A stretch of DNA of 63,227 nucleotides, filler included, from Raillietiella orientalis (lineage: Eukaryota), in assembly GCA_036172245.1 (NCBI GenBank). It is 8 parts of 8 records of this genome, joined end to end, with 100 filler letters (N's around TTAATTAATTAA, not from the genome) between each part and the next. Parts side by side here need not be neighbours in the genome. Positions count along the whole stretch, not along the records: positions 48,092 to 55,621 come from JAYWIR010000300.1; 7 more parts are not named here. One strand, given 5' to 3'. The notes below the pieces were generated by a model. It made no database searches and was not told the origin of the DNA. It worked only from the letters and a program-made list of their open reading frames with translations. A program made the position numbers and the translations under genes. Of the stretch, positions 1-63,227 are shown in pieces; position 1 is the stretch's first letter; the number at the start of each line of letters is the position of its first letter.

Positions 1-1919
1 CCCCTTGCTCTTCAGTGCCTACTTTAGTTGGTACTGAGAGCGTACAGGAAAAGTCTGGTGCACCTGCCGCATGAATGCGCCGGAACGACTGCGGTTTCAG
101 CATATGCGTACGAACTCTTCCTACTGTTCCCCATGTCCATTCCAACTTCGGCGATCGAGAAGTTCTTCGACCTGCTGAATCGAGGAACCGGGCTTACGGT
201 AAAGAGGGCGAAGTCGTCCGTGATGCCAGTTGGTGCGTCGTGGGCAGGGCAGCAGGACTGGGTCTGTTTGGGGATCCTAACGGTGAGGTACTTCAAGTAC
301 CTTGATGTGCCGTTGGAAGACTACTCCCCTGCGGAAGCGTGGTTCGGTTGCCTTTAAAAAGTAGAGACGGCTATCGGCCCGTTCACAAGCGGCAGGTTCT
401 TCCTGCCTGAAGGGGCTGCGGTTTGGAACATGTTCGCGGCTCCTCTCCTCCGTTCCCTGCTTTTTGTTTGCCCCTCCAAAGAGAGGATTAAAAAGCAAAC
501 GAAGGACATCCTCCGTATCGCCCTTTGGGGCGACGGGAGGGCCCGAGTCCGCTTAAAGAACTTGCGCGCTCCGCGTCGGGACGGTGGTCTCGGCCTCCTG
601 ACATTGGAGCGGCTGGAGCTGCAGCTCCAGTTCCGCTTGTCGGCACTTGTGCAGGAGTTGTGGTGCACCTGTTAGTGCGTCCCTGTACGTCTCCTTCTTC
701 AGAGAGCCACCGGCAAGACGGGACTGACGTCGCTTCTTGCACTCCATCGAAGCCGCATCAACCGATGTGGGCTTCAGCTACGGAGGGTGGCTGCCCTGGC
801 AAGGAAAAATCAAGGATGGATCACCTGTCTCCCCGCGAACGGTAGTGCCTGGTTAAAGAAAAGCATTCGCAAATGGGGACAGTTGGGCATGCAACCCTCC
901 CAAAAGGAACGAAGGTTCCTGTTTGGGTGTTACAGAAGTTGCACGCTTCGTGAGATCCTGGAGGATTATAAGAAGAGAGCGTGGTAAGGAAGAACCCCAT
1001 TCGCTGCCTAGCTTGACTCCCTGGTGGAACATAAGTTCAGCGATGTTGCAGCGAAGTGGGAGGTTACAATAAAAATCTCCGGGAAAGAGAAGAAGCAGAG
1101 AGAGCGGAAGACGGGCCAGCTAACTGATGCTGCGATCCCGAGTACGCCTCCAAATGGACTTCTGCGCTGGTGAGCGCTGCTGGATGTTCCGATTGAACAT
1201 CTGAAGTGGCCCACGGTTTTTATGAACTCTTTCATCTTCTTCCTAAAATGGCAAGAGTCGGCATTCCTGTTTTAGCACTGGGGACTCCCCTGAAACGCCC
1301 GAGCATATTACCGGACCTGAGAGGCGGTGGATTTCAGTTGTGTAAGGTGCGGGGAACGAGAGTCCCTCCCCCACCTCCTAGTGGATTGTGTTGCCCTTCG
1401 GCCCCTTTGGTTCCGCTTTGCCGCGTCCATCGGTATCCTTTGCGACAACCCCAGGGACGCACTAAAAGCCTTCTTCGTTGCCGACGCCCTATGGCCATCG
1501 TCCTCGATTGCAGCCTTGTGCTGCCTTCGTGGGATGGTCGCCGCATGGAGCACGGTGACGGGAGGACCTAGCGATCAGGACGCCATCCAGTGCGCCTCTC
1601 AATTTTTGAGGAGGGAGGCGCGATGGCCCCACCTCGATGTATACAACAAACAAGTGCTTGCCAGGATCCTGAGAGGGATGATGCGGCCCCAGCAGCATCG
1701 ATGATCCCTTTCCGTTCCCTCCCACCCTTTGCTTCTTTTTGTTCAGTTTTTTGTTTTTCTTCTTTACTCTGCTGCCTTGGTGGACCGTACCGGTCTAGGA
1801 ACCGGTGAATTGGTAGGCACCGTGGTTCTAACTTCTGGATGGAGCATTGCCACAGCCATGAATAATTTCTTTATAAAGTTTATTTTTTAATAAACCACCC
1901 GAAGAATTCCGGGTGAAAA
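1..1919 (+). mobile_element. Tx1/L1-type non-LTR retrotransposon, family I, 3' part (RT C-terminal half, CCHC domain, 3' UTR), degenerate
   Basis: Broken frames read SAYAYELFLL (degenerate YADD), FKYLDVPL and CVRCGERESLPHLLVDC (CCHC). The U-rich 3' UTR ends AATAAA, hairpin CACCCG..CGGGTG, AAAA at 1919. Confidence 0.9.
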
Positions 1920-2778
1920 TGGAATGGTTTGTGCAAATCGATCGCGACGACAAAGGCTCAAGCCGAGTCCGTGCTATCCTCTGAAAGATCTCCTTGGTCA
2001 GAGCAGAGCGCAAGGCTCCCTTGACCATCCTGAGCAACGCGTTGTCGCAACTGCCACCATGAGCTGTCGAGAAGCAGGTTGGCCTCCATGGTTCCTCCGG
2101 GAACAGCGTAGGTCTCCTCGTGACTCACCACGAAAGCGGCCACGCGCCCCAAACGCTAGGTTCACAACTTGGCATACAACTATGCGTCCGCATTCACTAC
2201 TGTGATGGAACGCCAGATGCTAATGTTGCGTAAGTCTCTTGATTTCGGCAGGAGACGTACTTTTGCAGACCGGAACGAGGCGGGAACTTCGTTGTGTTCG
2301 CGGATCAGCGTACTTAACCTGAGCAGCAAGGGGGCAGCTCTGTCCCGAAGCGATGTTTAAACTCCGCGGGCAGACCGTCCTCTCCTGGTGCCTTCCTTTT
2401 CTTTAACTTTGCTATGGCGGAGATGATCTCTACCATCGTGAACGGTTCGGCCAACCTGAAAGGAACCTCCTACTTGAGCGCGGGAGCACCATCCTGCAGG
2501 AGGCGGTGTGCGAAATAGCGCTCAGGTGTTGATGGCGCGTACAAGGAGGAATTGAACTCCCGCACGATGCGGCTAACCTGAGCTGGGCTGGAACGTTCTT
2601 GGCCCTGATGGTCCAGCAAGCAGGCCGAGCCTGACTGCCAGGCCTGCCTCTCCGCCTCAGCTTTGAATTCCTCCAAGCGACGGACGTTGGGACGCCCGGA
2701 ATACCGGCAGGCCTGAATGTAGGCCCGCTCGTTCCTGACCCCATCGCCGAAGCCCGGCGGAAGACGTTCCAGGGGAAA

Positions 2779-29208: not shown

Positions 29209-29214
29209 GAAGCG

Positions 29215-30590: not shown

Positions 30591-30599
30591 GTCGGAAGT

Positions 30600-40219: not shown

Positions 40220-43200
40220 CGATTGCGACCGAATTCATCGGGAAGCGGCCATGGTCGTTTTGGTGCAAGTGCGCAGATTTGGACGGAAAACACCACACTG
40301 GAAATAGAAAACATAGAGGAATTTCTGTGATGCATTTTGAAGATTCAATTTCTATGCTGGAAGACAAAGTAGATTGATTCCAACCGTTTTGATGTCTCAG
40401 GATTTCGACCGAATTCATCGGGAAGCGGCCATGGTCGTTTTGGTGCTAGTGTGGAGATTTGGACGGAAAACACCACATTGGAAATAGAAAAGATAAAGGA
40501 ATTTGTTTGATCCACTTTGAAGATTCTATTTGGATGTAGGAAGTGGAAGTAGATTGCTTCCAACCATTTTCATGTCTCAGGATTGCGACCGAATTAATCG
40601 GGAACCGGCCATGGTCATTTTGGTGCAAGTGCGGAAATTTGTACGGAAAACACCACATTGGAAATAGAAAAGATAAAGGAATTTTTTTTATCCACTTTGA
40701 AGATTCTATTTGGATGCAGGAAGTGGAAGTAGATTGCTTCCAACCATTTTGATGTCTCAGGATTGCGACCGAATTCATCGGGAACCGGCCATGGTCGTTT
40801 TGGTGCAAGTGCGGAGATTTGGACGGAAAACACCACATTGGAAATGGAAAAGATAGAAGAATTTCAGCAAATTGCATTTTTCCCGCGAATAACACTTGCT
40901 GGATGTTATTCCTGCAGCCCCACCAACCATTTTGATGTCTCAGGTTTTCGACCGAATTCATCGGGAATCGGCCATGGTCGTTTAGGTGCAAGTGCGGAGA
41001 TTTGGACGGAAAACATTACATTGGAAATAGAAAAGATAAAGGAATTTTTTTGATCCCCTTTGCAGATTCTATTTGGATGTAGGAAGTGGAAGTAGATTGC
41101 TGGCTTCATTTCCTTCTCAGGATTGCGACCGAATTCATCGGGAAACGGCCATGGTCGTTTTGGTGCAAGTGCGGAGATTTGTACGGAAAACACCACATTG
41201 GAAATAGAAAAGATAAAGGAATTTTTTTGATCCACTTTGAAGATTCTATTTGGATGCAGGAAGTGGAAGTAGATTGCTTCCAACCATTTTGATGTCTCAG
41301 GATTGCGACCGAATTCATCGGGAACCGGCCATGGTCGTTTTGGTGCAAGTGCGGAGATTTGGACGGAAAACACCACACTGGAAATAGAAAACATAGAGGA
41401 ATTTCTGTGATGCATTTTGAAGATTCAATTGCTATGCTGGAAGACGAAGTAGATTGATTCCAACCATTTTGATGTCTCAGGATTGCGACCGAATTCTTCG
41501 GGAAGCTGCCATGGTGGTTTAGGTGCAAGTGCGGAGATTTGGACGGAAAACACCACATTGGAAATAGAAAAGATAGAGGAATCTTTGGGAAGCACTTTGA
41601 AGATTCTATTTGGATGCAGGAAGTGGAAGTAGATTGCTTCCAACCATTTTCATGTCTCAGGATTGCGACCGAATTAATCGGGAACCGGCCATGGTCGTTT
41701 TGGTGCAAGTGCGGAGATTTGGACGGAAAACACCACATTGGAAATAGAAAAGATAGAAGAATTTCTGTGATGCATTTTGAAGATTCAATTTCTATTCTGG
41801 AAGACCAAGTAGATTGATTCCAACCATTTTGATGTCTCAGGATTTCGACCGAATTCATCGGGAAGCGGCCATGGTCGTTTTGGTGCTAGTGTGGAGATTT
41901 GGACGGAAAACACCACATTGGAAATAGAAAAGATAAAGGAATTTTTTGATACACTTTGAAGATTGTATTTGGATGTAGGAAGTGGAAGTAGATTGCTTCC
42001 AACCATTTTGATGTCTAAGGATTGCGACCGAATTTATCGGGAACCGGCCATGGTCGTTTTGGTGCAAGTGCGGAGATTTGGACGGAAAACACCACATTGG
42101 AAATAGAAAAGATAAAGGAATTTTCTTGATCCACTTTGAAGATTCTATTTGGATGCAGGAAGTGGAAGTAGTTTGCTTCCAACCATTTTGATGTCTCAGG
42201 ATTGCGACCGAATTCATCGGGAACCGGCCATGGTCGTTTTGGTGCAAGTGCGGAGATTTGGACGGAAAACACCACACTGGAAATAGAAAACATAGAGGAA
42301 TTTCTGTGATGCATTTTGAAGATTCAATTTCTATGCTGGAAGACGAAGTAGATTGATTCCAACCATTTTGATGTCTCAGGATTGCGACCGAATTCTTCGG
42401 GAAGCTGCCATGGTGGTTTAGGTGCAAGTGCGGAGATTTGGACGGAAAACACCACATTGGAAATAGAAAAGATAAAGTAATTTATTTGAACCACTTTTAA
42501 GATTGTATTTGGATGCAGGAAATGGAAGTAGATTGCTTCCAACCATTTTGATGTCAAACGATTGCGACCGAATTCATCGGGAACCGGCCATGGTCGTTTA
42601 GGTGCAAGTGCGGAGATTTGGACGGAAAACACCACATTGGAAATAGCAAAGATAGAGGAATTTTTCTGATGCATTTTGAAGATTCTATTTCTATGCTAGA
42701 AGAGGAAGTAGATTGATTCCAACCATTTTGATGTCTCAGGATTCCGACCGAATTCATCGGGAAGCGGCCATGGTCGTTTACGTGCAAGTGCGGAGATTTG
42801 GACGGAAAACATCACATTGGAAATAGAAAAGATAGAGGAATTTTTTGCATACACTTTGAAGATTGTATTTGGATGCAGGAAGTGGGAGTATATTGCTTCC
42901 AACCATTTTGATGTCTAAGGATTGCGACCGATTTCATCGGGAACCGGCCATGGACGTTTAGGTGCAAGTGCGGAGATTTGGACGGAAAACACCACATTGG
43001 AAATAGAAAAGATAGAGGAATTTTTCTGATGCATTTTGAAGATTCTATTTACATGCTGGAAGAGGAAGTAGATTGATTCCAACCATTTTGATGTCTCAGG
43101 ATTCCGACCGAATTCATCGGGAAGCGGCCATGGTCGTTTAGGTGCAAGTGTGGAGATTTGGAGGGAAAACACCACATTGGAAATAGAAAAGATAGAGGAA

Positions 43201-46200
43201 TTTCTGTGATGCATTTTGAAGATTTAATTTCTATGCTGGAAGACGAAGTAGATTGATTCCAACCATTTTGATGTCTCAGGATTTCGACCGAATTCATCGG
43301 GAAGCGGCCATGGTCGTTTTGGTGCTAGTGTGGAGATTTGGACGGAAAACACCACATTGGAAATAGAAAAGATAAAGGAATTTTTTTGATCCACTTTGAA
43401 GATTCTATTTGGATGTAGGAAGTGGAAGTAGATTGCTTCCAACCATTTTCATGTCTCAGGATTGCGACCGAATTAATCGGGAACCGGCCATGGTCGTTTT
43501 GGTGCAAGTGCGGAGATTTGTACGGAAAACACCACATTGGAAATAGAAAAGATAAAGGAATTTTCTTGATCCACTTTGAAGATTCTATTTGGATGCAGGA
43601 AGTGGAAGTAGTTTGCTTCCAACCATTTTGATGTCTCAGGATTGCGACCGAATTCATCGGGAACCGGCCATGGTCGTTTTGGTGCAAGTGCATAGATTTG
43701 GACGGAAAACACCACACTGGAAATAGAAAACATAGAGGAATTTCTGTGATGCATTTTGAAGATTCAATTTCTATGCTGGAAGACGAAGTAGATTGATTCC
43801 AACCATTTTGATGTCTCAGGATTGCGACCGAATTCTTCGGGAAGCTGCCATGGTGGTTTAGGTGCAAGTGCGGAGATTTGGACGGAAAACACCACATTGG
43901 AAATAGAAAAGATAAAGTAATTTATTTGAACCACTTTGAAGATTGTATTTGGATGCAGGAAATGGAAGTAGATTGCTTCCAACCATTTTGATGTCAAACG
44001 ATTGCGACCGAATTCATCGGGAACCGGCCATGGTCGTTTAGGTGCAAGTGCGGAGATTTGGACGGAAAACACCACATTGGAAATAGAAAAGATAGAGGAA
44101 TTTTTTGCATACACTTTGAAGATTGTATTTGGATGCAGGAAGTGGGAGTATATTGCTTCCAACCATTTTGATGTCTAAGGATTGCGACCGATTTCATCGG
44201 GAACCGGCCATGGACGTTTAGGTGCAAGTGCGGAGATTTGGACGGAAAACACCACATTGGAAATAGAAAAGATAGAGGAATTTTTCTGATGCATCTTGAA
44301 GATTCTATTTCCATGCTGGAAGAGGAAGTAGATTGATTCCAACCATTTTGATGTCTCAGGATTCCGACCGAATTCATCGGGAAGCGGCCATGGTCGTTTA
44401 CGTGCAAGTGCGGAGATTTGGACGGAAAACATCACATTGGAAATAGAAAAGATAGAGGAATTTTTTGCATACACTTTGAAGATTGTATTTGGATGCAGGA
44501 AGTGGGAGTATATTGCTTCCAACCATTTTGATGTCTAAGGATTGCGACCGATTTCATCGGGAACCGGCCATGGACGTTTAGGTGCAAGTGCGGAGATTTG
44601 GACGGAAAACACCACATTGGAAATAGAAAAGATAGAGGAATTTTTCTGATGCATTTTGAAGATTCTATTTCCATGCTGGAAGAGGAAGTAGATTGATTCC
44701 AACCATTTTGATGTCTCAGCATTGCGACCGATTTCATCGGGAACCGACCATGGTCGTTTTGGTGCTAGTGTGGAGATTTGGACGGAAAACACCACATTGG
44801 AAATAGAGAAGATAGAGCAATTTTAAGGAAACACTTTGAAGATTCTATTTGGATGCAGGAAGTGGAAGTAGATTGCTTCCAACCGTTTTGATGTCTCAGG
44901 ATTGCGACCGAATTCATCGGGAAACGGCCATGGTCGTTTTGGTGCAAGTGCGGAGAATTGGACGGAAAACACCACATCGGAAATACAAAAGATAGAGGAA
45001 TTTTCTTGAACCACTTTGAAGATTGTATTTGGATGTAGGAAGTGGAAGTAGATTGCTTCCAACCATTTTGATGTCTCAGGATTGCGACCGAATTCATCGG
45101 GAAGCGGCCATGGTCGTTTTGGTGCTAGTGCGGAGATTTGGACGGAAAACACCACATTGGAAATAGAAAAGATAGAGGAATTTTTTTGATCCACTTTGAA
45201 GATTCTATTTGGATGTAGGAAGTGGAAGTAGATTGCTTCCAACCATTTTCATGTCTCAGGATTGCGACCGAATTAATCGGGAACCGGCCATGGTCGTTTT
45301 CGTGCAAGTGCGGAGATTTGGACGGAAAACACCACACTGGAAATAGAAAACATAGAGGAATTTCTGTGATGCATTTTGAAGATTTAATTTCTATGCTGGA
45401 AGACGAAGTAGATTGATTCCAACCATTTTGATGTCTCAGGATTGCGACCGAATTCTTCGGGAAGCTGCCATGGTGGTTTAGGTGCAAGTGCGGAGATTTG
45501 GACGGAAAACACCACATTGGAAATAGAAAAGATAAAGGAATTTTTTTGATCCACTTTGGAGATTCTATTTGGATGTAGGAAGTGGAAGTAGATTGCTTCC
45601 AACCATTTTCATGTCTCAGGATTGCGACCGAATTAATCGGGAACCGGCCATGGTCGTTTTGGTGCAAGTGCGGAGATTTGTACGGAAAACACCACATTGG
45701 AAATAGAAAAGATAAAGGAATTTTTTTGATCCACTTTGAAGATTCTATTTGGATGTAGGAAGTGGAAGTAGATTGCTTCCAACCATTTTGATGTCTCAGG
45801 ATTGCGACCGAATTAATCGGGAACCGGCCATGGTCGTTTTGGTGCAAGTGCGGAGATTTGGACGGAAAACACCACACTGGAAATAGAAAACATAGAGGAA
45901 TTTCTGTGATGCATTTTGAAGATTCAATTGCTATGCTGGAAGACGAAGTAGATTGATTCCAACCATTTTGATGTCTCAGGATTGCGACCGAATTCTTCGG
46001 GAAGCTGCCATGGTGGTTTAGGTGCAAGTGCGGAGATTTGGACGGAAAACACCACATTGGAAATAGAAAAGATAGAGGAATCTTTGGGAAGCACTTTGAA
46101 GATTCTATTTGGATGCAGGAAGTAAAAGTAGATTGCTTCCAACCATTTTCATGTCTCAGGATTGCGACCGAATCAATCGGGAACCGGCCATGGTCATTTT

Positions 46201-47991
46201 GGTGCAAGTGCGGAAATTTGTACGGAAAACACCACATTGGAAATAGAAAAGATAAAGGAATTTTTCTTATCCACTTTGAAGATTCTATTTGGATGCAGGA
46301 AGTGGAAGTAGATTGCTTCCAACCATTTTGATGTCTCAGGATTGCGACCGAATTCATCGGGAACCGGCCATGGTCGTTTTGGTGCAAGTGCGGAGATTTG
46401 GACGGAAAACACCACATTGGAAATAGAAAAGATAGAAGAATTTCTGTGATGCATTTTGAAGATTCAATTTCTATGCTGGAAGACCAAGTAGATTGATTCC
46501 AACCATTTTGATGTCTCAGGATTTCGACCGAATTCATCGGGAAGCGGCCATGGTCGTTTTGGTGCTAGTGTGGAGATTTGGACGGAAAACACCACATTGG
46601 AAATAGAAAAGATAGAGGAATTTTTTTGATCCACTTTGAAGATTCTATTTGGATGTAGGAAGTGGAAGTAGATTGCTTCCAACCATTTTCATGTCTCAGG
46701 ATTGCGACCGAATTAATCGGGAACCGGCCATGGTCGTTTTGGTGCAAGTGCGGAGATTTGTACGGAAAACACCACATTGGAAATAGAAAAGATAAAGGAA
46801 TTTTCTTGATCCACTTTGAAGATTCTATTTGGATGCAGGAAGTGGAAGTAGTTTGCTTCCAACCATTTTGATGTCTCAGGATTGCGACCGAATTCATCGG
46901 GAACCGGCCATGGTCGTTTTGGTGCAAGTGCGGAGATTTGGACGGAAAACACCACACTGGAAATAGAAAACATAGAGGAATTTCTGTGATGCATTTTGAA
47001 GATTCAATTTCTATGCTGGAAGACGAAGTAGATTGATTCCAACCATTTTGATGTCTCAGGATTGCGACCGAATTCTTCGGGAAGCTGCCATGGTGGTTTA
47101 GGTGCAAGTGCGGAGATTTGGACGGAAAACACCACATTGGAAATAGAAAAGATAAAGTAATTTATTTGAACCACTTTGAAGATTGTATTTGGATGCAGGA
47201 AATGGAAGTAGATTGCTTCCAACCATTTTGATGTCAAACGATTGCGACCGAATTCATCGGGAACCGGCCATGGTCGTTTAGGTGCAAGTGCGGAGATTTG
47301 GACGGAAAACACCACATTGGAAATAGCAAAGATAGAGGAATTTTTCTGATGCATTTTGAAGATTCTATTTCTATGCTGGAAGAGGAAGTAGATTGATTCC
47401 AACCATTTTGATGTCTCAGGATTCCGACCGAATTCATCGGGAAGCGGCCATGGTCGTTTACGTGCAAGTGCGGAGATTTGGACGGAAAACATCACATTGG
47501 AAATAGAAAAGATAGAGGAATTTTTTGCATACACTTTGAAGATTGTATTTGGATGCAGGAAGTGGGAGTATATTGCTTCCAACCATTTTGATGTCTAAGG
47601 ATTGCGACCGATTTCATCGGGAACCGGCCATGGACGTTTAGGTGCAAGTGCGGAGATTTGGACGGAAAACACCACATTGGAAATAGAAAAGATAGAGGAA
47701 TTTTTCTGATGCATTTTGAAGATTCTATTTCCATGCTGGAAGAGGAAGTAGATTGATTCCAACCATTTTGATGTCTCAGGATTCCGACCGAATTCATCGG
47801 GAAGCGGCCATGGTCGTTTAGGTGCAAGTGTGGAGATTTGGAGGGAAAACACCACATTGGAAATAGAAAAGATAGAGGAATTTCTGTGATGCATTTTGAA
47901 GATTTAATTTCTATGCTGGAAGACGAAGTAGATTGATTCCAACCATTTTGATGTCTCAGGATTTCGACCGAATTCATCGGGAAGCGGCCAT
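40220..47991. repeat. Satellite 3, 180-bp monomer, ~43 copies
   Basis: The unit GATTGCGACCGAATTCATCGGGAACCGGCCATGG.. recurs every three 60-nt lines. Confidence 0.98.
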
Positions 47992-48091: not shown

Positions 48092-49886
48092 CGGGATCTT
48101 CTCCGGAGCGTTCCGCCTTGGCGATCACCTTGCGCGGGAGGGTCTCCAGGGAGACCGTCGCGCAGTAGACCGCCTTGACTTCCGAGAGCTGGGCCTCCAG
48201 CTTCTCTCGCTCCGGCTCCACAACCATACGGTTGACTTCGTCTTGAGCCTCGGAGATGCGGGTCAGGAGTTGCTCCTGTTGCGCCTCTGTCTGGCCTTGA
48301 CGAACCTCCTCCGCTAGTTTGACCACCTCCTCGGTGAGTTGCAGGGCCTCCTGCGACTCCGGGGTGGGTTCCGGCATCTTCACCACTTCCTCTGTTAACG
48401 TCCATTCTCGCCTTCCACTGCTGCAACCTCACGAGTAGGGGGGTTTGTTGCTCCCTCACGAGCATCTTCCTCTTCCCCTTTTCCCTATCTCCACGAAACC
48501 GTCCGCCAAAACCGGAGCGGCCTCTCTTGCCTTCTGCTTTTGTAGCTGAGGTTTAATCACCTCAGCCAACACCCTTTCCCTCACGGGGGATTCTCCTCTC
48601 ATCGTCCGGTAGTTGGCGTACTCCGGACAACTCCATTTCGAATGCCCAGGTTGCTTGCAAAAGGAGCAAAGCTCGCGCATCTTGCAGTTCCGGACCTGGT
48701 GGCCCATCTTCCCACTGCGGAAGCAGCGGGAACTAGGGTAGGCACCTAGCCGGTGGCCGAAATTTTTGCAGCCAGTGCAGAACATTGGCTGCTGTCTGTA
48801 CCTGATTGAGACATCTTGCGACGAGTCGTCAATCAGTACATTTCCGGGGATTTGCGCCCCCTCTTTTAGTTTGATTTTGGCGATTACCTCGCCCGAGAAG
48901 ATTTTCCGGAGATGTTCTGGGTTTTCATCTCCAGAACTTCTCCGTATTGGGACAGGAAGTCCCACACCGTTTCCCTCTCTGTGAGAATGCCAAGCCCGTT
49001 TAGGAAGACGGTCGTGTAAGGCATTTCGCCAATGCCTTGGACCATCTTCCCCTGAATATTAATGCCCTTTTCAATTAGGGCCTCACGCAGCTCCAAGCAA
49101 TCCGTGTATAAAATAAATCCCGCTCAATTCGGGATTATCGCTTGGAGGCGGTCGAAATCTACATTAGTTTTGCAGAGTGCGCAATACACCTCCCTGACGT
49201 TGTTAAACCGGATCAGAGCGGTTTTGAATGTAATCGGCTTGGACGCCGGGATGAGTCGAACCATCGGCTCTTTTGTTCGAGTGATGTTCTCACTCGCCTG
49301 TTTGCCAAACACCCTATTCGGCTGGGCAGAGGCCTGCCCCGCCGTCACCGCCGCATACAAAAAAGGCGGCTTCGCCGCCGCCGAGCAAGATGGCGTCGCC
49401 TTCTGCACCCCATGGACGCCCGCGGTTCCCGCCTAGGACGCCGCCGCCGCCGCGGGCGGAACCCACGCCGCTGCCGTCGCTGCCGTCGCCGCCGCGGACG
49501 GGAGCCTCGGCATCGCCGCCGCAGGCGCGACCTTTCCCGCCGCGGGCGCGATCCTCGGCGTCGCCGCCGCGGGCACGACCTCCATCGCCGTCGCCGCGGG
49601 CACGACCCTCGGCATCGCCGCCGCCGGCGCAGCAAAGCCTGCCGCGGGCGCGACCCTCGGCGTCGCCGCTGCCTCCTCGCCACTGCCGCATATTACCTCC
49701 ATGTGTTCCTCCATGGGGGTCGACGGCTGCTCCACTTCTTCCTTGTGCCTCCTTGCGGCTGCCGTTGCTGCCGCGCTTCTTGTTTGGAGGACTTCCACCT
49801 CGGGTCCTTCGGCGCTGCTGCTGCTGCTGCTGTCGGGTATTTCCCTCGGTGGCACAGTCACTTCCACACTAATCTTCGGCAGGCAC
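48092..49886 (-). mobile_element. Family IV element copy 2, 5' end and frameshifted ORF1
   Basis: Pieces 49433-49903, 49124-49408, 48884-49096, 48456-48965 and 48092-48386 align colinearly with ORF1 53673-55562. Confidence 0.88.
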
Positions 49887-50008
49887 TTGCCCTGTGAGGG
49901 CACACAAAAATTGCCTCGGCAGTGGTTTTACGCACTGCCTTGGCGGGGTATTGGGTAAAGTTTTCAACTAGCAATAATCGCGGCTCAGTCGCCTTCCTCG
50001 CCTACGAT
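49887..50008 (-). ncRNA. U4: U4 spliceosomal snRNA, lacking about the first 19 nt
   Basis: The minus strand reads ATCGTAGGCGAGGAAGGCGACTGAGCCGCGATTATTGCTAGTTGAAAACTTTACCCAATACCCCGCCAAGGCAGTGCGTAAAACCACTGCCGAGGCAATTTTTGTGTGCCCTCACAGGGCA. It has the U4 core GCGAUUAUUGCUAGUUGAAAACUUU-CCAAUACCCCGCC, the k-turn 5' stem-loop, the 3' stem-loop, the Sm site AAUUUUUG and the terminal hairpin. Confidence 0.93.
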
Positions 50009-50144
50009 TTTCCCCAAGTCCCACAGGGGGTGGGGTGAATTTATTTTCTATAATACTACAATTTTTGCATTCGCACTCTCATTCATTCTTTACACTATCA
50101 CTTTTTCACTCTGAAGTTCTTTGAATTCACTAGAGTTCTGCTTT

Positions 50145-53100
50145 TCAGGGTGGGATTCCAGCTGGATGGTCCCGGGCGTCGTCCTCGATCCTCTTCAGGA
50201 TGAATCTGTACGTCCAGGCTTGGATTCTTCCACAGTTCCTGATGCCGATTTCCTTCTTCAGGAGTCCCTGGAGGATCTCCATCGGAGGTGCGGCTCTCCT
50301 GGCTTTCCTCATTTTCCACCACCGCACAAGTATGGCGGTGCTGAAGAGGGCGATGGTCGTCCTCACCATGGGATTGTAACAGGGAACATTACCATCTTCC
50401 TGAAACATCCCGGCGAGGATCTCCATTACGGAGCTGGTGGTCCGTCCGATGATCCTTTTCAGGATCAGCCAGTCGTGAAGCAGTGTGGGACACGTCAAGA
50501 TGTGAAGTCTTGTGTCGATGTCACCACACGCTGTGCAGTCTCTGTCTTCCCTTCTTCTCGTGAAGTGTTGTAGCCTGGACCCCGTCAGGATTCCTCCATG
50601 GTAAAACATCAGGAGGTTGTCCTGGGTGTCCGGCGGAAGGTCACTCCCTCAGAGTGTCGTTCCGATCGCCAACAGGTTGATCCTGTCACTCCCGTAGCGA
50701 TCGGCGGCTTGTTGGAGGGCACTGGTGTCGCGGTCCTCTTCTTTAATCAGTCTTCGGAGGTTCATCCTGGTTACCCTGGACCACGCGAAGTCGTTGTGGT
50801 TAATCCACACCTCGCGGGTCTGGTGGGTAAACCTCCCTAGCATCATCTCTATGTACCGAAGTACACGCGAGTGATGTAGGTAGCCTCCTCGGCGCCATTC
50901 CTGAATTCGTTGCAGGGTAACTCTGGGCCGCTGGTAGATCCAGCTTCGCGTGTCCGGAGGGACCGGAAGCATCCAGGGGATCACCACGATGGATTCTTCC
51001 AGCCAGAGTTCCCTGCTTTTCGGCACGATTTTCATCTTGTGCTTACGCACTAGCCGTTGCTTTCTCCTCCAGGTTGGGTCGATGTGGATCCATTCCCCTG
51101 CTCGTTCTAGCAGCGCAGTCACCAGGCCTTTCGAGTTGTAAAGCAACAACGCGTAGGCCCTATGCGCCGCATATGGCCAGTCATCCCAATGGGTGGCGAT
51201 ATCCAGGATGTGTCGCGTATCCATGATTTCCATGGAATGTGCAAGCGATTTCATCCCGGAGCCTCCTTCGTCCCTGGGACGACACAAGGGTTTTAGACGT
51301 ACTCTTGGGCGATAGTAGCCCCACAATGTTTTCCTTTGCAGCTTCTCGAATTCCCTCGTGGTGTCTTTGTTCATTCTTGCGAAGGCTGCTCCAAAGAGCA
51401 CCTTTGGAAGGAGTACTCCGTTCCAGAGGTTAGCCTTTCGCTTTATTCCAAAGTCCAGTCGGGTAAACTTCGCTGCTTCCTTGGCCGTTTTCTCCAGGAT
51501 TGTTGTCCACAGTAGCTTCGACGCAGAGTCGTCGCCGACGTGAACTCCCAGATATTTGGCCGTGTCCACCGTTCGGAATCCTCTCCCCGTGAGGGTGGAG
51601 AGGTCTAGTATTCCAACGGTTAGGAGCTGACTCTTCTGGCGTTGATCTTTAGCCCGAGACCTTGTTCCATCAGGTCTACCACATCCAGGAACGCCCGCTG
51701 GTTCCTCTCTCCCTTGATGAAGAAGAGGAGGTCATCGGCGTACGCCAGATGGGTGAGACGCTGGCCATCGATGGTTATTCCTTGTAGACGTTCGCTTCTC
51801 TCGATAAAGGAAGACAACGCCTCCATGTAGATGACGAACAGCATCGGACTTATGGAGTCGCCCTGCCGGACTCCCCGTTCCATCCTAATTGCTGCCGTCT
51901 CCTCGCCGTTGATTTTGATGCGGCAATACTGGTTTTTGAGTACCATCTTCACGAAGTCGCTGAAGTATTCTGGAAGGCCCAGCTTATCCAGAATCTTCAG
52001 CAGCATCCTATGGTCGATGGAGTCGAACGCCTTCTCCATGTCAGTGAACACCAGCACCAGGTTCTCGCCGACGTATCGACTGAGTCCGACGGTAGCCTGG
52101 GCACACTTGACATTGTCCAACATGCGACGGCCAGGGACCGCACATGTTTGGACTGGGGAGATCAGCTTCGGCATGACCCTGCCTAAGCGGTTGGACCAGA
52201 TCTTCGCCAACCACTTGGCATCAGAGTTCAGGACGGAGATTGGCCTCCATTGAGCGACCTGCGTAAGGTCGCCTCCTTTCGGCAACAATCTCATCCTGCT
52301 CTCATAGAAGGACTTCGGTAGTTTGCCTTCTTCGCGGATGCAGAGGGTGAGCTGTTTGAACAAACGCAGGTAGGCATGCAGCTACCGCTGGTAGTGCGTA
52401 ACTGGTACGCTATCAGGGCCTGCTGCCACGTCCTTACGTAGTTCGTCGAATGCAGCTTTCACCTCGCCTTCGGAAAACTCCTCCTCCAGTCTGTTTCGTT
52501 GGAGGTCGTCTATTCTCTTCTCGAGGTGTCCCAGAAAGGCTTGTTGTATTTGTGTAGACAAATGTTGTCGACTGAAGTGATTCTCATAATGCCGATGAAA
52601 TGCATCGAGAATATCCTCTGACGTTTCTCTCATTTGTCCCTCATGCTGGATGCAGAAGATGACTGTCGCCAGATTCTTCTTCTCCAGCACGCCGATTTCC
52701 CCTTTTACATTTTTGAAGACGTACCGACTCTCGTACTGATCGTAGTACTTTGAGAGGGAGCGATCTTGAATGTTAAGCTCCCGGTACGCTTCCTGCCTCA
52801 GTCGCTTACTCAAATACTGCATATTGCAGAATAAATGGATTTTATGCTTCAACCTGTCCCAGTCGGCTACTCTGCGGATGGTGGAGTCACGCAGGATCGC
52901 CTCGATGACCTCCTGGTTACAGGGAAGCGTCTCAAACCAGGCGGGCATGCAGATGAGCGCCGCCCTGGTGGCCTTCTTTCGTCGAGGATTCTCCGTTCGG
53001 AGGGAGAACCGTATCAGCGGGTGATCGGACAGCAGAGTTTGCACGTCGCGAAACCCCTGTATGCGGTTGTCGATCTCCGCACTGTGAAGGACGTGATCAA

Positions 53101-53662
53101 TCGGTTTGTGGTGAGCTGTTCGCCATAAGAGTCCGAAATCATCGGACAACCGACGATACGCCTCTCTTCCTCTGGCGTCCTGGGAATATTTAATCTCGTC
53201 CAGGATATTCAAGTCTCCTGCGACGATGATTATGTCCTTTGGTGCTACTCTTTTGCGGAGTTCTTCGTGTAGTTTTTCCGCGCACCGATGCTTCAACTTG
53301 TGTGGTCCGTACACGTTCACCAGGAAGAGGTGAACGTTGCTGGAACAAGACAGTCGCATGCCGATTATTCTGCCAGGTATGGGACAGAAGGTTTCCAAAA
53401 TGGTGTGGGCAAGCTCGTTTTTGATGAGGATTGCCACGCCCATGGTCTTTTTCTGTCCCTCGCTGACGAACAGTTTGCCATCAAAGCGGCGTTCCATCTC
53501 CAGGACATTTTGATTTCCCAGATGGTGGGTTTCTTGTAGGCACACCACATGTTGTTGTGCGATGTTCTGCAATCTCCTTTTTCTTTTGCCTGGGTCATTA
53601 AGTCCATTTACGTTCCAGGAAGCGATGTTAACCTTCCTGGTCGAGGACAGCGACGAGGCCAC
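50145..53662 (-). pseudogene. Family IV ORF2 (APE, RT, CCHC) with in-frame stops at 52382 and 50649 and a frameshift near 51637
   Basis: APE motifs SWNVNG, LQETH, AGDLN, IDH, SDH. RT motifs WRPIS, DMEKAFD, GVRQGDSISP, YADD, KYLG. C-terminal CTACGDIDTRLHILTC. Confidence 0.93.
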
Positions 53663-53672
53663 GTTGGGGATC

Positions 53673-55562
53673 CTACTTTTTAGCTTTTCTCGTTTTCATC
53701 TGCCTGGGAGATCTTTTCGTTCTCCCGGCAGCAGATGGTTTCTCACTTCCGGCATCGCTCTCGGTGCCGGTTTGATCTTCTGCTGGACATTCTGCCTTCT
53801 CTACTATTTTGCGTGGGAGTGTTTCTAAACTCACCATCGCACAATAATCCTGCTTAACAGCAAGAATCTGCCGTTCCATCTTATCGCGTTGTTGCGTTCC
53901 TACTATTTTGTTGATGTCTTCTTGGACTTCACACAAACGACGTAAGAGTTGCTCGTGTTCAACCTGTTCGGGTTTCTGCTGGACTTCCTTCGACAGGTTG
54001 TCCATTTCCTCAACTATTAGCAGGTCTTCCTGCGATGTCGGGGCAGGGTTATCCGCCACCGCCACTTCTTGTTCTTCTTCCGCCTTCTCGCCTTCTTCCG
54101 CAATTTCTTGGGGCTTTTCGGAGTCTTGATGCTCGTTCTCGAGCATCCTTCTCTTCCCCTTCTTCTTTACTGTCACGAAGCCGTCCTCCGATATAAGAGG
54201 GACTTCGATGGTTCTCCTCGCCTTCTCCGCAACATTTCTTTTCGGCTCTTCGGCCGGCTTTTGTGGTTTCTCTCGCACGGGAGATAGACCACGCAACGCC
54301 CTCCACTCCTCAAACTTTCCGCAGTTCCACTTGGCGAGGCCAGGGAGTTTGCAGAACGAACACGCCTCCGGCTCAAGGCACTGTCTTGCTAAGTGCCCGA
54401 TCTTATTGCAACGGTAGCAGCGTGCTTTTGTGCACGCTGTCATCCGATGCCCGAATGTTTTGCAAATGGTACAGAATGGCGGTTGCATTTTGTACCGGAA
54501 CATTACTTCAGGGGAATGATTGTCTAGGTGGTACACTGCCGGAATTTGTGCCCCATCCTTCAGCTTCATTTTCGCGAAGCCTACTCCTGCGAACACTTGT
54601 TCCACAATGTTGGGTAAAGCCGCCTGCTTTATCTCCCCAAACTGTTGAAGGAATCTCCACACCTCATTCTGTGGTGTTAGCCTGCTAACACCCGCAATGT
54701 GTACAGTGGTGGTGGACAACTCGCCCAGCCCCCGTATCATTCTACCGTTAATGTTTATTCCCTGTTCGAGAAGGGAATCTGCCAATTGTTCATCATCCGT
54801 GTGGATGCTGAAGCCACTCGCGCACGGGATGATAGCCTGCACACGGCCGAAGTCTACATTGGCTCGGTTCAGGGCGAAGTAGACCTCACGAATATTATGT
54901 ACGCGGATTAACCCGGTTCTGAATGATATTATGCGTACATTTTCTTTCTCCGGTGCCATCAGTTCCGGGACGTCTTGGAGGATTAATACCCTCGGTTTTC
55001 CATATTCCCGTGCGGGGCGTACGAAAGTGTTCGCTGCCGCCGCCGCTGCTGCATAACTCAGCGGATGCTGTGTTGGGGCATCCGAGCAAGATGGCGTCGC
55101 GTCTGGCACCCTGCGTGCCGCGTGGACGCCCGCGGGTCCCGCCTGGGATGTCGTCGCCACGGGCGCAACCCTCGTCGTTGCCATCTTCGCCGTTGCTACC
55201 GCCGCCGCAGGCAGATCCCTCGGCATCGCCACCGCAGGCGCGGCCGCTGCCGCCGCGGGCACGATCCTCGGCGTCGCCGCCGCGGGCACGACCTCCGCCG
55301 TCGTTGCCACGGGCACGAACCTCGGCATCGTCGCCGCAGGCGCGTCAACTCCCGCCGCGGGCGCGATCCTTGGCATCGCCGCCTCCTCGCCTGTGCCGCA
55401 CTGTACCTTTTCAGGGGACGTCGGCCTCCTCGTCGTTTCTCCTGCTTGCATCGTCGCGGCTGGAGCTGCCGCTGGCGAAGTTCGCAGGTCTTCTTCCCCC
55501 GTGGACTCCTGGCTGTTGCTGTTGCTGCTGCTGGCGAAGATGGTCCTTGATGGCACTGTCAC
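53673..55562 (-). CDS. Family IV ORF1 (Ala/Pro repeats, three zinc knuckles, coiled-coil-like tail)
   Basis: 629-aa open frame with CTICKTFGHRMTAC, CYRCNKIGHLARQC and CSFCKLPGLAKWNC (H to L in the third). The true start codon is uncertain. Confidence 0.9.
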   Translation of the reverse strand: MTVPSRTIFASSSNSNSQESTGEEDLRTSPAAAPAATMQAGETTRRPTSPEKVQCGTGEEAAMPRIAPAAGVDAPAATMPRFVPVATTAEVVPAAATPRIVPAAAAAAPAVAMPRDLPAAAVATAKMATTRVAPVATTSQAGPAGVHAARRVPDATPSCSDAPTQHPLSYAAAAAAANTFVRPAREYGKPRVLILQDVPELMAPEKENVRIISFRTGLIRVHNIREVYFALNRANVDFGRVQAIIPCASGFSIHTDDEQLADSLLEQGININGRMIRGLGELSTTTVHIAGVSRLTPQNEVWRFLQQFGEIKQAALPNIVEQVFAGVGFAKMKLKDGAQIPAVYHLDNHSPEVMFRYKMQPPFCTICKTFGHRMTACTKARCYRCNKIGHLARQCLEPEACSFCKLPGLAKWNCGKFEEWRALRGLSPVREKPQKPAEEPKRNVAEKARRTIEVPLISEDGFVTVKKKGKRRMLENEHQDSEKPQEIAEEGEKAEEEQEVAVADNPAPTSQEDLLIVEEMDNLSKEVQQKPEQVEHEQLLRRLCEVQEDINKIVGTQQRDKMERQILAVKQDYCAMVSLETLPRKIVEKAECPAEDQTGTESDAGSEKPSAAGRTKRSPRQMKTRKAKK

Positions 55563-55590
55563 TTACACACTTCTTTTTTTTGAAAACACT

Positions 55591-55621
55591 TGCCCTGTCA
55601 GGGCACGCAAAAAATTGCCTC
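55591..55621 (-). ncRNA. U4: U4 snRNA 3' end (Sm site plus terminal hairpin), cut by the contig end
   Basis: Reads GAGGCAATTTTTTGCGTGCCCTGACAGGGCA, three differences from the corresponding 49888-49917 segment. Confidence 0.8.
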
Positions 55622-57339
55622 NNNNNNNNNNNNNNNNNNNNNNNNNNNNNNNNNNNNNNNNNNNNTTAATTAATTAANNNNNNNNNNNNNNNNNNNNNNN
55701 NNNNNNNNNNNNNNNNNNNNNCGAAAGAAAGTAGGCTGATCCAAGATTCTTTAGAAAGAAATATCTTGAAAGAAAAGCAATATTTCAATTTTTCTCAAGA
55801 CAACGGATGAAAGACCAAGGACCTCATCCACTTGGGAGAACATTTAAAACCTCCTCGGGATAAGTAAGTGTGGACTTTCTGGAAAAACATGCAAGAAGGC
55901 TTTGCGTTGCCTGTTTAAGACTAGGAAATTTTGTAACCAAAGAACGTCGACATTTACGAAAGGGCCACGTTGTCAGTTTTCCAAGCTCATCTTCTCCAAG
56001 CAGCGAAGAAATTTGAGCACATGAAAAATCCCTCATCTAGACAGCAGGACAGCTATCTGTAGCAAAAGTGGGATCCGATCCAGTCAACTTTTTATCCGAG
56101 GCGTCTGCTTTCCCTGTTTCACAGATCAGGATGCTACGCGTGCTCACAATCTGGAGATTCCCTTCTTCCAGAAGAAGGCAGCTGTTAGCTACTCCGTCAT
56201 TACATCTTCCTTGACCTCTCTGTATATGCGAAAAACGAAAAATCGTCTGAAGTGCTGTGAAATTTCCGTACACTTTGTGAACATTGATCTGTGAAACCCT
56301 GCGGATTCACAGAGAGATGATTTTGAAAGGTAGAAAAAGCTTCCTTAACCAATGTGTACTGTTTTTAACCGATTCTTTGTAATCATAGCATGGATTGTTC
56401 TTGTCAGTGGTATTGCTTTGGTCAATTGCTTCGCGGTGAGAAAAGCTACACTTAACATCTGGTTTGACCGGTGATTGGTTTAGGAATCTTGAAAGAATCC
56501 TGAGAAAATGCTCCTCCAAAGCACGTTGGAACAGAAGTAATGGTCACAGACATCTCCAGAGCACACAGTAAAGAAGTTTCAACCTTTCGCATGTAAACTA
56601 TGCTTTCCTGCTCTGTCCCATTCCCAGGCATATGAGAATGGCCAGTAATGAGGAACAATTGAGTAGGTACAGGTACAGCATGAAACTACCGTTAGAAAAA
56701 TATTTATTGATGTGTATGCAGCAAACGTTCCCAAACCCAAAGTGCTATTGGGAAAAGGTTTTCTCGATAGATTGTCAGTTTTTCCCTCAATGATCCGGAA
56801 TTCGCGTTTGCAAGATCATTGAAACAAGAGGATGAGTAGGATTCTCGAACCCCAATTGTTTTATTGCCAGGTTTTAAATGGAACAATTTTTTTTCTTTAA
56901 TTGATAAAATCTGTGGTTAATTGAAATATCACAGAAATAAAAAATTTAGGAACTGAAATAGAAATGAATGAATTTAAGAACTGAACAAAGATTGATTGGG
57001 GATCGATAGCAAAGACGCAGTTTGAATAAATAGAGATGCTACTACATCTGAAGCACTGCGCAAATAGATCAAGACCAGTTCTTGTTCCATGGATCAAGAA
57101 AACTAAGTTTTAAGTGTAATTCTTGATATTACAGAATAATTCCTTCTCTGTGTGAGCTTGGTACCCCTCTCCGAGCAACAGATGTCACAATAGCACCGTA
57201 TCCGTCGAGTGCTTCCCTTATCGCTCTCAAGAAGCAAAAATCATTAAGTACACGAATTCACTTATGCATCCATCCTTTAACCAATTTATTAATGAATTCT
57301 TCAATGGTATCATAATTTAGAACATTTTAAAAGTGGGAG

Positions 57340-58168
57340 TACAAAATAACCATCTCTGGAAAAAAGAATAAGCAAGAAGAGCGGAGGACGGGCCACTGAA
57401 CAGACGCTGCGATTCCGAGTGCGACTCCCAATGGACTTCTGCGCGGAGGAGCGCTGCTCGATGTTCCAATTGTACATCAGAAGTGGCCCTTCCCTTCCGA
57501 CGGCAGGAGTCGGCACTACTGTTGAAGCATTGGGGACTCCCCCGCAACGCCCTCCGACACCACTGGACCTGGGGAGCGGTGAATCCCAATTATGTTGGCT
57601 GTGGTGAACGGGAGTCCCTCCTCCACCTCCTTGTGGATTGTGTTGCACTTCGGCACCATTCCTTCCGCTTTGCTGCGGACGTCGGTATCTCCTGCGGCAA
57701 CCCCAGGGACGCATTGAAAGCCGTCTTCGTTAACTACGACCTTCGGTCAACGGCCTCAATAGCAGCCTAGGGCTGCCTTCGCGGGATCGTCGACGCATAG
57801 AGCCCCGCTACGGGAAAACCACGCGATGAGGAGGCCATCCAAGGAGCCGCCCATTTCCAGAGGACGGCGTCGCGATGGTCACACCTCGTTACGCGAGAAC
57901 AAGAAAACCTTGCAGACATCCTGAGAAGGATGCAACGGCCCAGCAAAAACAGTGATCCCTTCCGGTTCACTTTTTTCATTTTTGTTTTGTTTTCTGTCTT
58001 TCCACCTTACCCCTGCTGCCTTTGTGAACCGAACCGGTCTGAGGACCGACAACCGGTGATCCGGCTGGCTTTGAGTTTCTTCGAGCGTCGTTGGAGCATG
58101 GCTCCACCCACTGACGTCTTTCTTAAAGTATATTTTTAAATAACGCCACGGCGAAATCCGCGTAAAAA
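57340..58168 (+). mobile_element. Family I element 3' fragment, degenerate
   Basis: Homologous to 1080-1919 and 10490-11324, including CGERESLLHLLVDC and the terminal hairpin plus A-run. Confidence 0.85.
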
Positions 58169-59470
58169 TCCAATGATTCTCGCAAGTCGACTGCGACCGC
58201 ATCAACGATAACCCTATACCCTCATTCCACACTGCATATTCTACCACTGAAGGCCGCTCTGAAATTCGGGTGGCGACCGTGTTCCTTATATTCACTGTAC
58301 CTCTCTACAACCGACTCCAGGTTACTGCCCAGGAACTCGAGTCTCTCGGACACCACCATGTGCAAACAGGATGTTTGCCCGCTTTTGCTAAACGCGGAAT
58401 TCCGGTGCAATCAGTACAAACAGCGGTTTTGCAAAGGGAGATGCATCAAAAAGTTCGTGTTGGTCTACAGCGCTCTCGCGGACATTCGACGGGCACCCTC
58501 GTCCCCGTCACTTCATCAGAAGGACCACCTCCCCTTATCTTGCGTGAGACAAGCTGCAGAGAGTTTCCGAGTAAGGCGGGCCCAAACAAAAGCCACGATC
58601 GCGACGGGATGCTGCATCAGAGGCATCGTCGGCACAGACCGCTCCGTGATAGCGTCTATCACTCTCAACGACACCCGTACACCCTGACAGCAGCATCATA
58701 GCGAGCACGGGTGTAGGGTGGCCTTACGCCATGTAAAATACAAATTTCCGCTGCATTTATGTTCTCAACCGCAACCAATATCCCTGAAGAAATGATTCCA
58801 ATTTTTTCAAAAATAATAGCTATCCTACAACTGCCAGTATCTAAAACATTCGTATACTATGCTTTTCCCCAGGAGCCACTACGAAAAGAAACAAGAACAG
58901 GAGTATGTAAGTTCCGGATTCTCAATTCATTGCACCTGCTCCACGTATTTTTTTCCTTTCCAGTCCCGGAAGTCTACATGAATTTTCACAAACGCGTAAG
59001 AAAAACGCTAAGCACCCCTATCTATCTAAGGGACAGTGAATACTCAGCAAGGAAAATGTAGAAAAGTTGAAAATCAATGGAGAGGAATATTGCCATTTCT
59101 TTTCTTAAGGAATGAGTTGACTAAATTCTCAGCATGTGAAGAAAAGCCTGGAGTTACATGGGAATTATTCCAGGACATGCAAACACGAAGCAAAGTAGAA
59201 ATCAGCGAAAATCTTACAACCTGACCAATTTTTTTTATCCTTATTCGAAAGTGTTTTCGGAGTACTCTCCGAGGTGTGCATTCTTCTGAAAGCAGGAAAT
59301 GACTTCGCGGTTCTTTGGAAACCAAGAGGAATAGCAAAATCTTCGTTTCAGACTGCAATTCAGACCTCTATTTCCAGACTGTAATCTAGGAATCATCGAA
59401 ACCAGAATATAGAATAAAGGTGGAACAAATAGCTGTGTTCAAATTGAAGCCAATTATTTTCCGTCTCGTA

Positions 59471-61239: not shown

Positions 61240-62382
61240 AGTCGAATAAATGCGGACGCCAAGTTGCTAGCAAAGGTCTAAGCAGAGTGCCTGAGACGGT
61301 TTGCAAACGCCTACATCAGAACGGAACAGACATATGCTGCGCCATTGAACGCGACTGACAGGAACGAGGTTTCCTGTTTGGGTGCTAAAGGAGTTGCACG
61401 CTCCGAGAGGTACTGGAGGATCCAAAGAAGCAAGCTTGGACAGGAGGAAGTCCACTCGCTGCTGCGCTGGCCTACATAGTGGAAGATAAACACAGCGATG
61501 TTGCGTGGAAGTGGGAGGATATGATTGAAAGCTCCGGGAGAAGAAAGAAGCAGGGAGAGTGGAAGAAGGGGCCAGTGGACAGACGCTGCTATTGTGGCTG
61601 CGCCTCCTAATAGAATTCTGCGCCGGAACGCGCTTCTCGATATTCCTTCTGGACATCTGATATGGCTTCCGGTGCTCATGGACACCTCCACCTCCTCTTT
61701 AAATGGCAGTAATCGTCTAAACAGTTCTAGCATAGGCGACTCCCCTGCAAAGCCCTCCGTCACCACTGGACATAGAGAGCGGTCGATCCCAATTGTGTTA
61801 AGTGTGGTGAACGTGAGTTCCTGCTCCACATCCTCGTGGATTGTGTAGCCCGTCAACCCCTTTCGTTCCGCTTTGCCGCGAACGTCGTTTTTCCCTGCGG
61901 CGACCCCATGGACGCTTTGAAAGCCTTCTTCGTTAACGAAGCCCTTCGGCCAGCGGCCTCGATAGCAGCCTAGGGTTGCCTTGGCTGCATCTTCGACGCA
62001 AGGAGCCCCGCTACAAGAGTACCACGCTTTAAGGATGTCATCCAGGGCGCCGCTTAATTGTTGAGTAGGGCGTCGCGATGGCCATACCTGGATCCCCGAG
62101 AACAAGAAATCCTTGCCGGCATAACAAGAAGGATGATACCGTCCCAGCAGCAACCGTGATCCCTTCCCGTTCCCTCCCACCCTTTTTTTCCTTTTTGTTT
62201 TGTTCTCTTTTTAACCCCCTTATTCCTGCCTTCTTCGTGGACCGAACCGGTCTGAGGATCGACAACCAACGACCCAGTAAGCTTTGTGTGTGTTAGTGCG
62301 ACGCTGGAGCATGGCTTCACCTACTGACTTCTTTCTGGATGTTTATTTTTAAATAAACGCACCGGCGGAATCTTGGTGAAAA
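61240..62382 (+). mobile_element. Family I element fragment, internally deleted (RT domain 1-2 remnant joined to ORF2 3' region and 3' UTR)
   Basis: INADAKLLAKV*AECLRRFANAYIRTEQTYAAP at 61245-61345, then a jump to the QERGFLFG region. It ends AATAAA, CACCGG..TTGGTG, AAAA. Confidence 0.8.
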
Positions 62383-63227
62383 TCCAATGATTGTTGCAAG
62401 TCGACTACGACCGCATCACCGTCGACCCAAATACCTCTTTCCACACTGCATCTTCTACCACTGGAAGGCGCTCCAGAATTCCTGTTGGCGACCGTGTTCC
62501 TTGTATTCATTATGTCTCTCTACAACCGAAACCAGGTTACTGCCGAGAAACTCGAGTCACTCCGACATGTCCATGTGCAAACAGGATGTATGCACGCTTT
62601 TGCTGCACGCATATTTCCAGTGCAATCAGTGCACACAGCTGGTTTGCATAGGTGGATGCATACCCAAGCTCATGTTGGTCTGCAGCGCTCACGCGGACAT
62701 TCGACGGGCATTCTGGTCCCCGTCACTTCACCTGAAAGACCTCCTTCCCTTCTTTTGCGTGGTGGATGCTGCAGAGGGTTTGCGTGCAAGGCGGGCCCAC
62801 AGCAAAAGTTGCGATCTTGACGGGGTGCTGCATCCGCGGCATCGTCGGCACAGCCCGCTCCGTGATGACGGGTCTCTCTCTCAACGAAGGACGGCCACTC
62901 TGACAGCAGCATCCTGGCGAGGACGGTTGCGGGGTAGCCTTACGCAGTTCAGAAAACAAATATCCGCTGCAATTATGTTTCCATTCACAACGATTAACTC
63001 AGAAGAAATGATTTCAATTTCCTCAAAAATCATAGGGATCCTCGAGACTCCAGTATCAATAACATTTCCATTCTATGCTTTTAACCAGTAGACAATAAAA
63101 AAAGAAAACGGAACAGATGTATGAGGCCCGCATTCTCAATTCGTTGCATCTGCTCCACGTGTTTTTTTCCTTTCCAGTCCCGGCAATCTTTATGAGATTT
63201 CACAATCGCGTGAGAACAACACTCAGT

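Follow-up and report, generated by a model that had tools for sequence, protein, structure and literature searches.

A LINE 3′ end within a U4 snRNA remnant of Raillietiella orientalis, and a short nick core possibly shared with a sister lineage that inserts into reverse transcriptase genes

The Keno elements, Tx1 LINEs that use one site in U2, place the 3′ end of an APE-type LINE at a fixed internal position of an snRNA gene that reads in the same direction as the LINE (PMC4494074, PMC4640811). The snRNA-targeting elements named as of 2015 in PMC4640811 were Keno and Utopia (both in U2), Dada-U1 and Dada-U6, and U5 was added among the snRNA targets in PMC4494074. In the article texts that we searched, no U4-associated LINE was found, nor any paper that mentions ‘U4 snRNA’ together with ‘Tx1’. 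A snRNA-derived 5′ end has been described for the Tx1-Mar families and SINEU, which carry heads derived from U1 or U2 and occur as tandem copies that sandwich a target duplication (PMC4494074, Kojima 2015). These families land in Mariner and not in an snRNA gene. Among the Tx1 families that target transposons, Tx1L inserts into Tx1D, Tx1-Mar into Mariner, Tx1-8_Crp and Tx1-4_AMi into LTR retrotransposons, and Tx1-9_AMi into Harbinger (PMC4494074). Co-transcription with the target is described as a known strategy (PMC4494074). Precise target-primed insertion into a multicopy RNA gene is also seen in R1Bm and R2, which belong to other clades and use another target. The isolated R1Bm endonuclease has an intrinsic consensus of 5 nt despite the strict site specificity of the element (PMC1919474).

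We analysed a stretch of 63,227 nucleotides from Raillietiella orientalis (the window), in which eight pieces of ~8 kb each (1-8055, 8156-16181, 16282-24210, 24311-32166, 32267-40119, 40220-47991, 48092-55621 and 55722-63227) are joined by spacers of the form N44-TTAATTAATTAA-N44 (8056-8155 and six further places). Because the pieces are separate, adjacency is meaningful within a single piece only. Tandem satellites with periods of ~278, 277 and 180 bp and 88-96% likeness between copies fill nearly all of three pieces (17704-24194, 32267-40119 and 40220-47991). The 278-bp satellite adjoins, in the same piece, an uninterrupted ORF of 405 aa with talin rod and vinculin-binding-site domains (16234-17451, minus strand; PF21865, 6e-27; PF08913, 2.5e-17).

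Two LINE families of the window are compared here: family IV, which ends in U4, and family I, which ends in the reverse transcriptase (RT) genes of other LINEs. Judged by its published description, Keno shares the fixed internal snRNA position with family IV, but the target here is U4 instead of U2, a single junction is seen, and the 3′ part of the snRNA is repeated at the 5′ side of each element. In contrast to the heads of Tx1-Mar and SINEU, the U4 head starts at nt 21, is accompanied by a gene-type 3′ box, and is at once the 3′ flank of the element upstream of it. Family I resembles the transposon-targeting Tx1 families in landing at a fixed place inside a mobile element, but its site is the antisense of the conserved KAFD motif in the RT of related LINEs. 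Compared with R1Bm and R2, read-through from the promoter of the target is something that we only infer for U4.

The 3′ end of a family IV element (element A, minus strand) meets U4 at 49998..50012, where the plus strand reads TCGCCTACGATTTTC. On the minus strand, positions 50015..49999 read GGGGAAAA followed by TCGTAGGCG, with the break between 50008 and 50007; A ends at 50008, and U4 nt 21 and onwards run from 50007 downward. With the Rfam model of U4 (RF00015; gathering score 46), a single match was obtained in the window (n = 1), at 50028..49890 (minus strand; 77.6 bits). Model nt 1-20 did not fit, and the good match started at model nt 21 (UCGUAGGC). The U4 remnant at 50007..49890 (minus strand, model nt 21-138) is a truncated, non-functional copy, in which the 3′ end of element A replaces the first 20 nt, the part that pairs with U6. 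Positions 50008-50028 were also considered as a diverged U4 5′ end, but this candidate was rejected, with ~7/20 agreement by eye with a typical animal U4 5′ end. For family IV, the register has an uncertainty of ~1 nt: with an A at nt 20 of the Rfam consensus, the final A of GAAAA may be part of U4. Three sequencing runs of one study were used, with part of the stretch covered in X1 only (share 0.28). An X1 contig spans 49884-50053 with one differing letter, and among the X1 matches listed there was neither a loose end at 50008 nor an intact U4 5′ end.

Element A (50008..55571, minus strand) is a decayed LINE of the APE type. On the same strand it comprises ORF1 with a CCHC knuckle (55562..53676; CCHC, 6.8e-4), an APE endonuclease (53695..52385; PF03372, 2.1e-16), an RT (52381..51623; PF00078, 5.6e-30) and C-terminal parts (51731..50148), followed by the 3′ UTR down to 50008. 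Its ORF2 has the layout of APE-type LINEs, with APE before RT, and is split into four frames. Two other LINEs of the window, T1 and T2, carry the same domains; the ORF1 CCHC was also found in T2 (3.5e-4), and a zf-RVT domain in T1 (PF13966, 1.2e-6). The C-terminal piece of A had no Pfam match at 1e-3, and its tblastn likeness to the T1 domain was 28.7%.

On its other side, the U4 remnant runs without a gap into the 5′ UTR and ORF1 of a second element, B (48092..49889, minus strand), which represents the 5′ part of a divergent family IV relative. The remnant doubles as the 3′ flank of A and the 5′ leader of B, a point missed by an earlier sequence-only reading of this DNA, and this double role leaves room for the explanation that the junction is not an endonuclease site. 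Element A has a U4 leader as well. Directly upstream of A, the 3′ end of a second U4 copy, with the Sm site and the 3′ stem-loop, lies at 55588..55621 (minus strand). The visible 5′ flank of A is the 3′ end of U4 and not nt 1-20, and this copy is cut short at 55621, where the contig stops. An snRNA-gene 3′ box follows just after this stem-loop (55572..55587, minus strand) and matches the consensus GTTTN0-3AAARNNAGA given in PMC9006982 exactly. The window contains two matches to this consensus versus 0.59 expected, and by our own arithmetic the chance of a match within 20 nt after the U4 end on the right strand is ~1e-4. The homologous place after the other U4 copy (~49885-49870) no longer fits the 3′ box.

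As the 3′ box is gene-flank sequence, the leader derives from a U4 gene and not from a copy of the mature snRNA. Moreover, as A carries the same leader with the 3′ box behind it, the repeated unit consists of U4 from nt 21 to its end plus a LINE, and units of U4 nt 21-end, gene-type 3′ flank and LINE are arranged head to tail. The U4 end and 5′ UTR of A and B are 73% identical over 563 columns, with homology that crosses the boundary between U4 and UTR; the leaders agree at 26/29 positions and are close to the U4 consensus. Between the two elements, ORF1 identity is no more than 42-48%, and a recent tandem duplication of one unit was rejected for this reason. Judged from these comparisons, conserved leaders next to a diverged ORF1 fit either leaders that were copied from U4 genes time and again or leaders kept by selection. 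No second U4 head was present before a B-like fragment at 31909-32166.

Family I was recognised by four 3′ ends, which terminate in G(T/G)GAAAA or GTAAAAA. Behind every one of them comes an RT motif (…VDLHKAFD) in antisense, entered at one and the same codon position. The piece-2 copy (p2; 8551-11324, plus strand) is internally deleted with both ends complete, and interrupts an RT gene at its KAFD codons in antisense orientation. Its 3′ junction (11317-11333) reads GGTGAAAA followed by TCGAAGGCC, with the break between 11324 and 11325, and a 14-bp duplication borders the insertion on either side (8537-8550, TCGAACGCCTTGTG; 11325-11338, TCGAAGGCCTTGTG). The corresponding empty site, GCAG followed by TCGAATGCTTTGTG, is found at 7578-7591 (plus strand) in the uninterrupted RT of T1. 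The target-site duplication and the empty site make the family I register exact, and they place the nick on the RT sense strand, after …TTCGA. R1 likewise has a 14-bp target duplication.

A second family I 3′ junction (p1; 1908..1933, plus strand) reads GGGTGAAAA followed by TGGAATGG, with the break between 1919 and 1920, antisense in the RT of T2. A third (p8a; 62371..62396, plus strand) reads GGTGAAAA followed by TCCAATGA, with the break between 62382 and 62383 and a 5′ flank that terminates in ...GCAGTCGAATAA at 61249. A look-alike of the latter (p8b) has its junction between 58168 and 58169, and the two may stem from one event that was later duplicated. The p1 and p2 copies are 76-78% identical inside the insert and 65% in the flank, and the p8 flank cannot be aligned with theirs. 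Judged by these flanks, the insertions go back to three or more separate events, each in a different RT lineage.

In total, 4 of the 7 RT-motif sites in the window were filled, while those of T1, of a further relative (P4+) and of A were empty. As the sequence-only reading had noted, the KAFD site of A itself is unoccupied: positions 52023-52033 read TCGAACGCCTT, antisense to the M-E-K-A-F-D-S codons of A, and the full antisense EKAFD site is TCGAACGCCTTCTC (52023..52036, plus strand). Family I looks like a parasite of parasites. Two further joins between elements were observed. At 15068-15092 (minus strand), a T2-like endonuclease ORF ends just past the ...HLIAGDFN codons, and at this break the 5′ end of another element on the same strand begins (CGAGTGCGGGCATGTTTTT...); it may represent another family with a conserved coding motif of other LINEs as its target. 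At 26543, a family I-like element on the minus strand (CCCTCTAGGG...) meets with its 5′ end the P4+ coding region, which has the opposite orientation. This join sits just upstream of the P4+ RT motifs and not at the KAFD site.

Kinship between the two families was assessed with RT trees of A, the T-type RTs of the window and outside proteins. The first tree contained 76 of 121 proteins (75 outside), the second was a quick tree of a 43-row subset (38 outside), and the third had 62 rows (57 outside), including the 35 best RT-covering matches among 147 HMMER matches to P0121, a protein of the T clade. In all three trees, A was placed beside the clade of T, P4+ and P0121, with SH-aLRT values of 99, 99 and 98 from quick searches only. 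The sequence-only reading would have failed had the families not been close relatives, and the trees did not refute it but recovered them as sisters. In a library of 1.84 billion proteins, the best full-length RT match of P0121 was A (146 bits, 35.6% identity; the next match had 142 bits). Among known sequences, family IV thus stands closest to the family I/T group in these trees, as a distant sister. Identity between the family IV and I/T lineages is 31-38% for the RT and 23-25% for the APE domain, and the length of both branches could make them attract each other in the trees. The C-terminal part of family I is 47-49% identical to T1 versus 28-34% to A.

The 3′ ends of the two families share a layout of AAUAAA, ~25-30 nt with a GC hairpin, and a G-rich end in GAAAA; both junctions are genuine 3′ ends of related elements. 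A predicted fold of the 3′ end of A was not significant. No Tx1-named protein occurred among the 120 matches listed, and the relatives in the trees were unnamed LINE proteins. A word-based search with the RT of T1 gave one match, and a protein atlas returned unnamed endonuclease clusters only.

The three sequences on which the sequence-only reading had relied are all present, and U4 (break 50008/50007) and p2 (break 11324/11325) agree at 7 of the first 8 positions after the break, in identical register. Agreement with U4 was 6/8 for the other p2 duplication copy, for the empty site and for A's own site, 4/8 for p1, p8a and p8b, and 6/7 for the family I consensus TCGAANGC. Beyond the 8-mer, only 1/6 positions matched in the rest of the 14-bp duplication and 2/8 upstream, where the Rfam U4 consensus was used. 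The corresponding chances are 3.8e-4 for at least 7/8, 1.3e-3 for at least 6/7, and 0.03 for at least 10/22. The raw chance of the match, which had been put forward as worth estimating, is small, but the match depends on one family I copy and weakens to 6/7 against the consensus. Once ~6 family pairs, 1-nt shifts and selection of the best-matching copy are allowed for, we put the post-hoc chance at ~0.01-0.03 (our estimate, not a computed value).

Sequences within one mismatch of TCGAAGGC occurred at 60 of 126,454 window positions (4.7e-4). Two of these 60 follow the 3′ end of an element and 58 are unoccupied, one of which (9305) is identical to TCGAAGGC. Recognition must involve more than the 8-mer. 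Furthermore, two closer relatives of family I have other 3′ flanks: that of T1 (TGCACCTC) agrees with the core at 2/8 positions and that of P4+ (GCGAACGT) at 4/8, with CGAA at positions 2-5.

We rank the possible explanations as an inherited nick core, then coincidence, then a junction that is not a target site. The first holds that family IV lands in U4 between nt 20 and 21 and that a short core at the nick, T[T/A]CGA with the cut after the A, was inherited by both sister lineages; we give it an even chance. Under this explanation, family IV would integrate into U4 by target-primed reverse transcription, and its endonuclease would nick the strand antisense to U4 after ...GCCTACGA (between nt 20 and 21, +/-1). 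Each insertion would carry or rebuild the 3′ part of U4 at its 5′ side, by a long target duplication or by annealing of the U4 leader. An intact U4 would then be restored upstream and could be hit again, which would yield an array. In the order of events that we propose, B would have entered the U4 gene first, and A would then have entered the rebuilt U4. Family I, from the sister clade, would nick the sense strand of the RT genes of other LINEs after ...GCCTTCGA and produce a 14-bp duplication. Most simply, the core T[T/A]CGA would reflect a short nick preference that both lineages inherited as an intrinsic property, and each lineage would reach its full choice of site through contacts of its own. 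Such a short core is in line with the 5-nt consensus of R1Bm.

The inherited core is favoured by the junction match, the X1 contig across the junction, the U4 leaders with their gene-derived 3′ box, the sisterhood in the RT trees, the RT match between A and P0121, the similar 3′ layout and the site specificity of family I. A break inside U4 is also natural for an endonuclease nick, and not for an RNA 5′ end. Against it, a single U4 junction is visible and its 5′ side lies past the contig end, the 7/8 match rests on a single family I copy, nothing beyond the 8-mer is alike, 58 of 60 near-cognate 8-mers are empty, the lineages are distant, their long branches could attract each other, and the closer family I relatives have the deviating flanks given above. 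The core shows neither a single shared specificity nor which target came first; it hints at a shared cutting preference without proving one. The sequence-only reading had attributed both targets to one endonuclease specificity, and this overreaches, as the likeness ends at the 8-mer, nearly all near-cognate sites are empty, and the APE domains have diverged so far.

Alternatively, family IV may insert into U4 and family I into the RT motif by endonucleases that read unrelated features, with a likeness picked out post hoc. We regard such a coincidence as possible though rather unlikely. In its favour are a match that drops to 6/7 against the family I consensus and to 4/8 for 3 of the 4 filled copies, the lack of any match outside the 8-mer (10/22 overall, p = 0.03), the 58 of 60 empty near-cognate 8-mers, and the 23-25% identity of the APE domains. 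Moreover, the pair was chosen after 63 kb had been read. However, the chance of the match remains low both in its raw form and after our correction, the match lies in the same register at the nick, the lineages are sisters in the RT trees, and the P4+ flank also contains CGAA within the core.

The junction could also be a head-to-tail join, since two direct 3′-to-5′ joins are found elsewhere in the window. U4 would then be a heritable 5′ head of B, template jumping or a tandem integration would have joined A to it head to tail, and the likeness to the family I site would be due to chance. Among the seven recognised 3′ ends, two others join head to tail without a visible duplication, namely T1 with T2 (~5475, minus strand) and P4+ with the element that follows it (~29205, plus strand). 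At the ~5475 join, the usual AAAA tail is missing as well. Both A and B have an snRNA-derived 5′ end, and U1- and U2-headed Tx1 families have been ascribed to template switch (PMC4494074). Yet a head of this kind would start at the internal nt 21 of U4, where there is no reason to expect an RNA 5′ end. Furthermore, the leader of A includes the gene-flank 3′ box; given this exact box, the head does not have the form expected of a template switch from the mature snRNA. The leaders have also stayed near the U4 consensus, whereas ORF1 has diverged to 42-48% identity. These observations make the head-to-tail join improbable.

We consider very doubtful the scenario of the sequence-only reading, in which family I arose when a U4-targeting ancestor of one specificity met a near-cognate site antisense to the KAFD codons of its own RT. 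The sisterhood of family IV and the I/T clade and the 7/8 core speak for it. Against it, the tree consists of sister branches that differ in target, without an outgroup whose target is known, and gives no direction from U4 to RT; family I is nested among lineages with other flanks; its hosts are the RT genes of at least three related lineages, which need not include its own (the RT N-terminal part of family I is absent from the window); and the KAFD site of family IV itself (TCGAACGC) is empty.

How site-specific LINEs change their targets is an old open question, and usually the end states alone are visible. In the case described here, two sister lineages in one genome, one with a spliceosomal RNA gene and the other with an RT motif as target, agree at the nick. 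Building on the inherited core, a fuller account, which we hold to be unlikely, is that U4 serves family IV as both landing site and leader, that each insertion between nt 20 and 21 rebuilds U4 upstream of itself and is transcribed by read-through past the 3′ box, that renewed hits on the rebuilt gene produce the head-to-tail arrays, and that the sister lineage took the core to the KAFD antisense of other LINEs, as a parasite of parasites. If true, a change of target between a host gene and a gene of a mobile element would be traceable, and the U4 of the host would survive. The gene-derived U4 leader with its 3′ box suggests that a LINE could borrow an snRNA promoter without destroying the gene.
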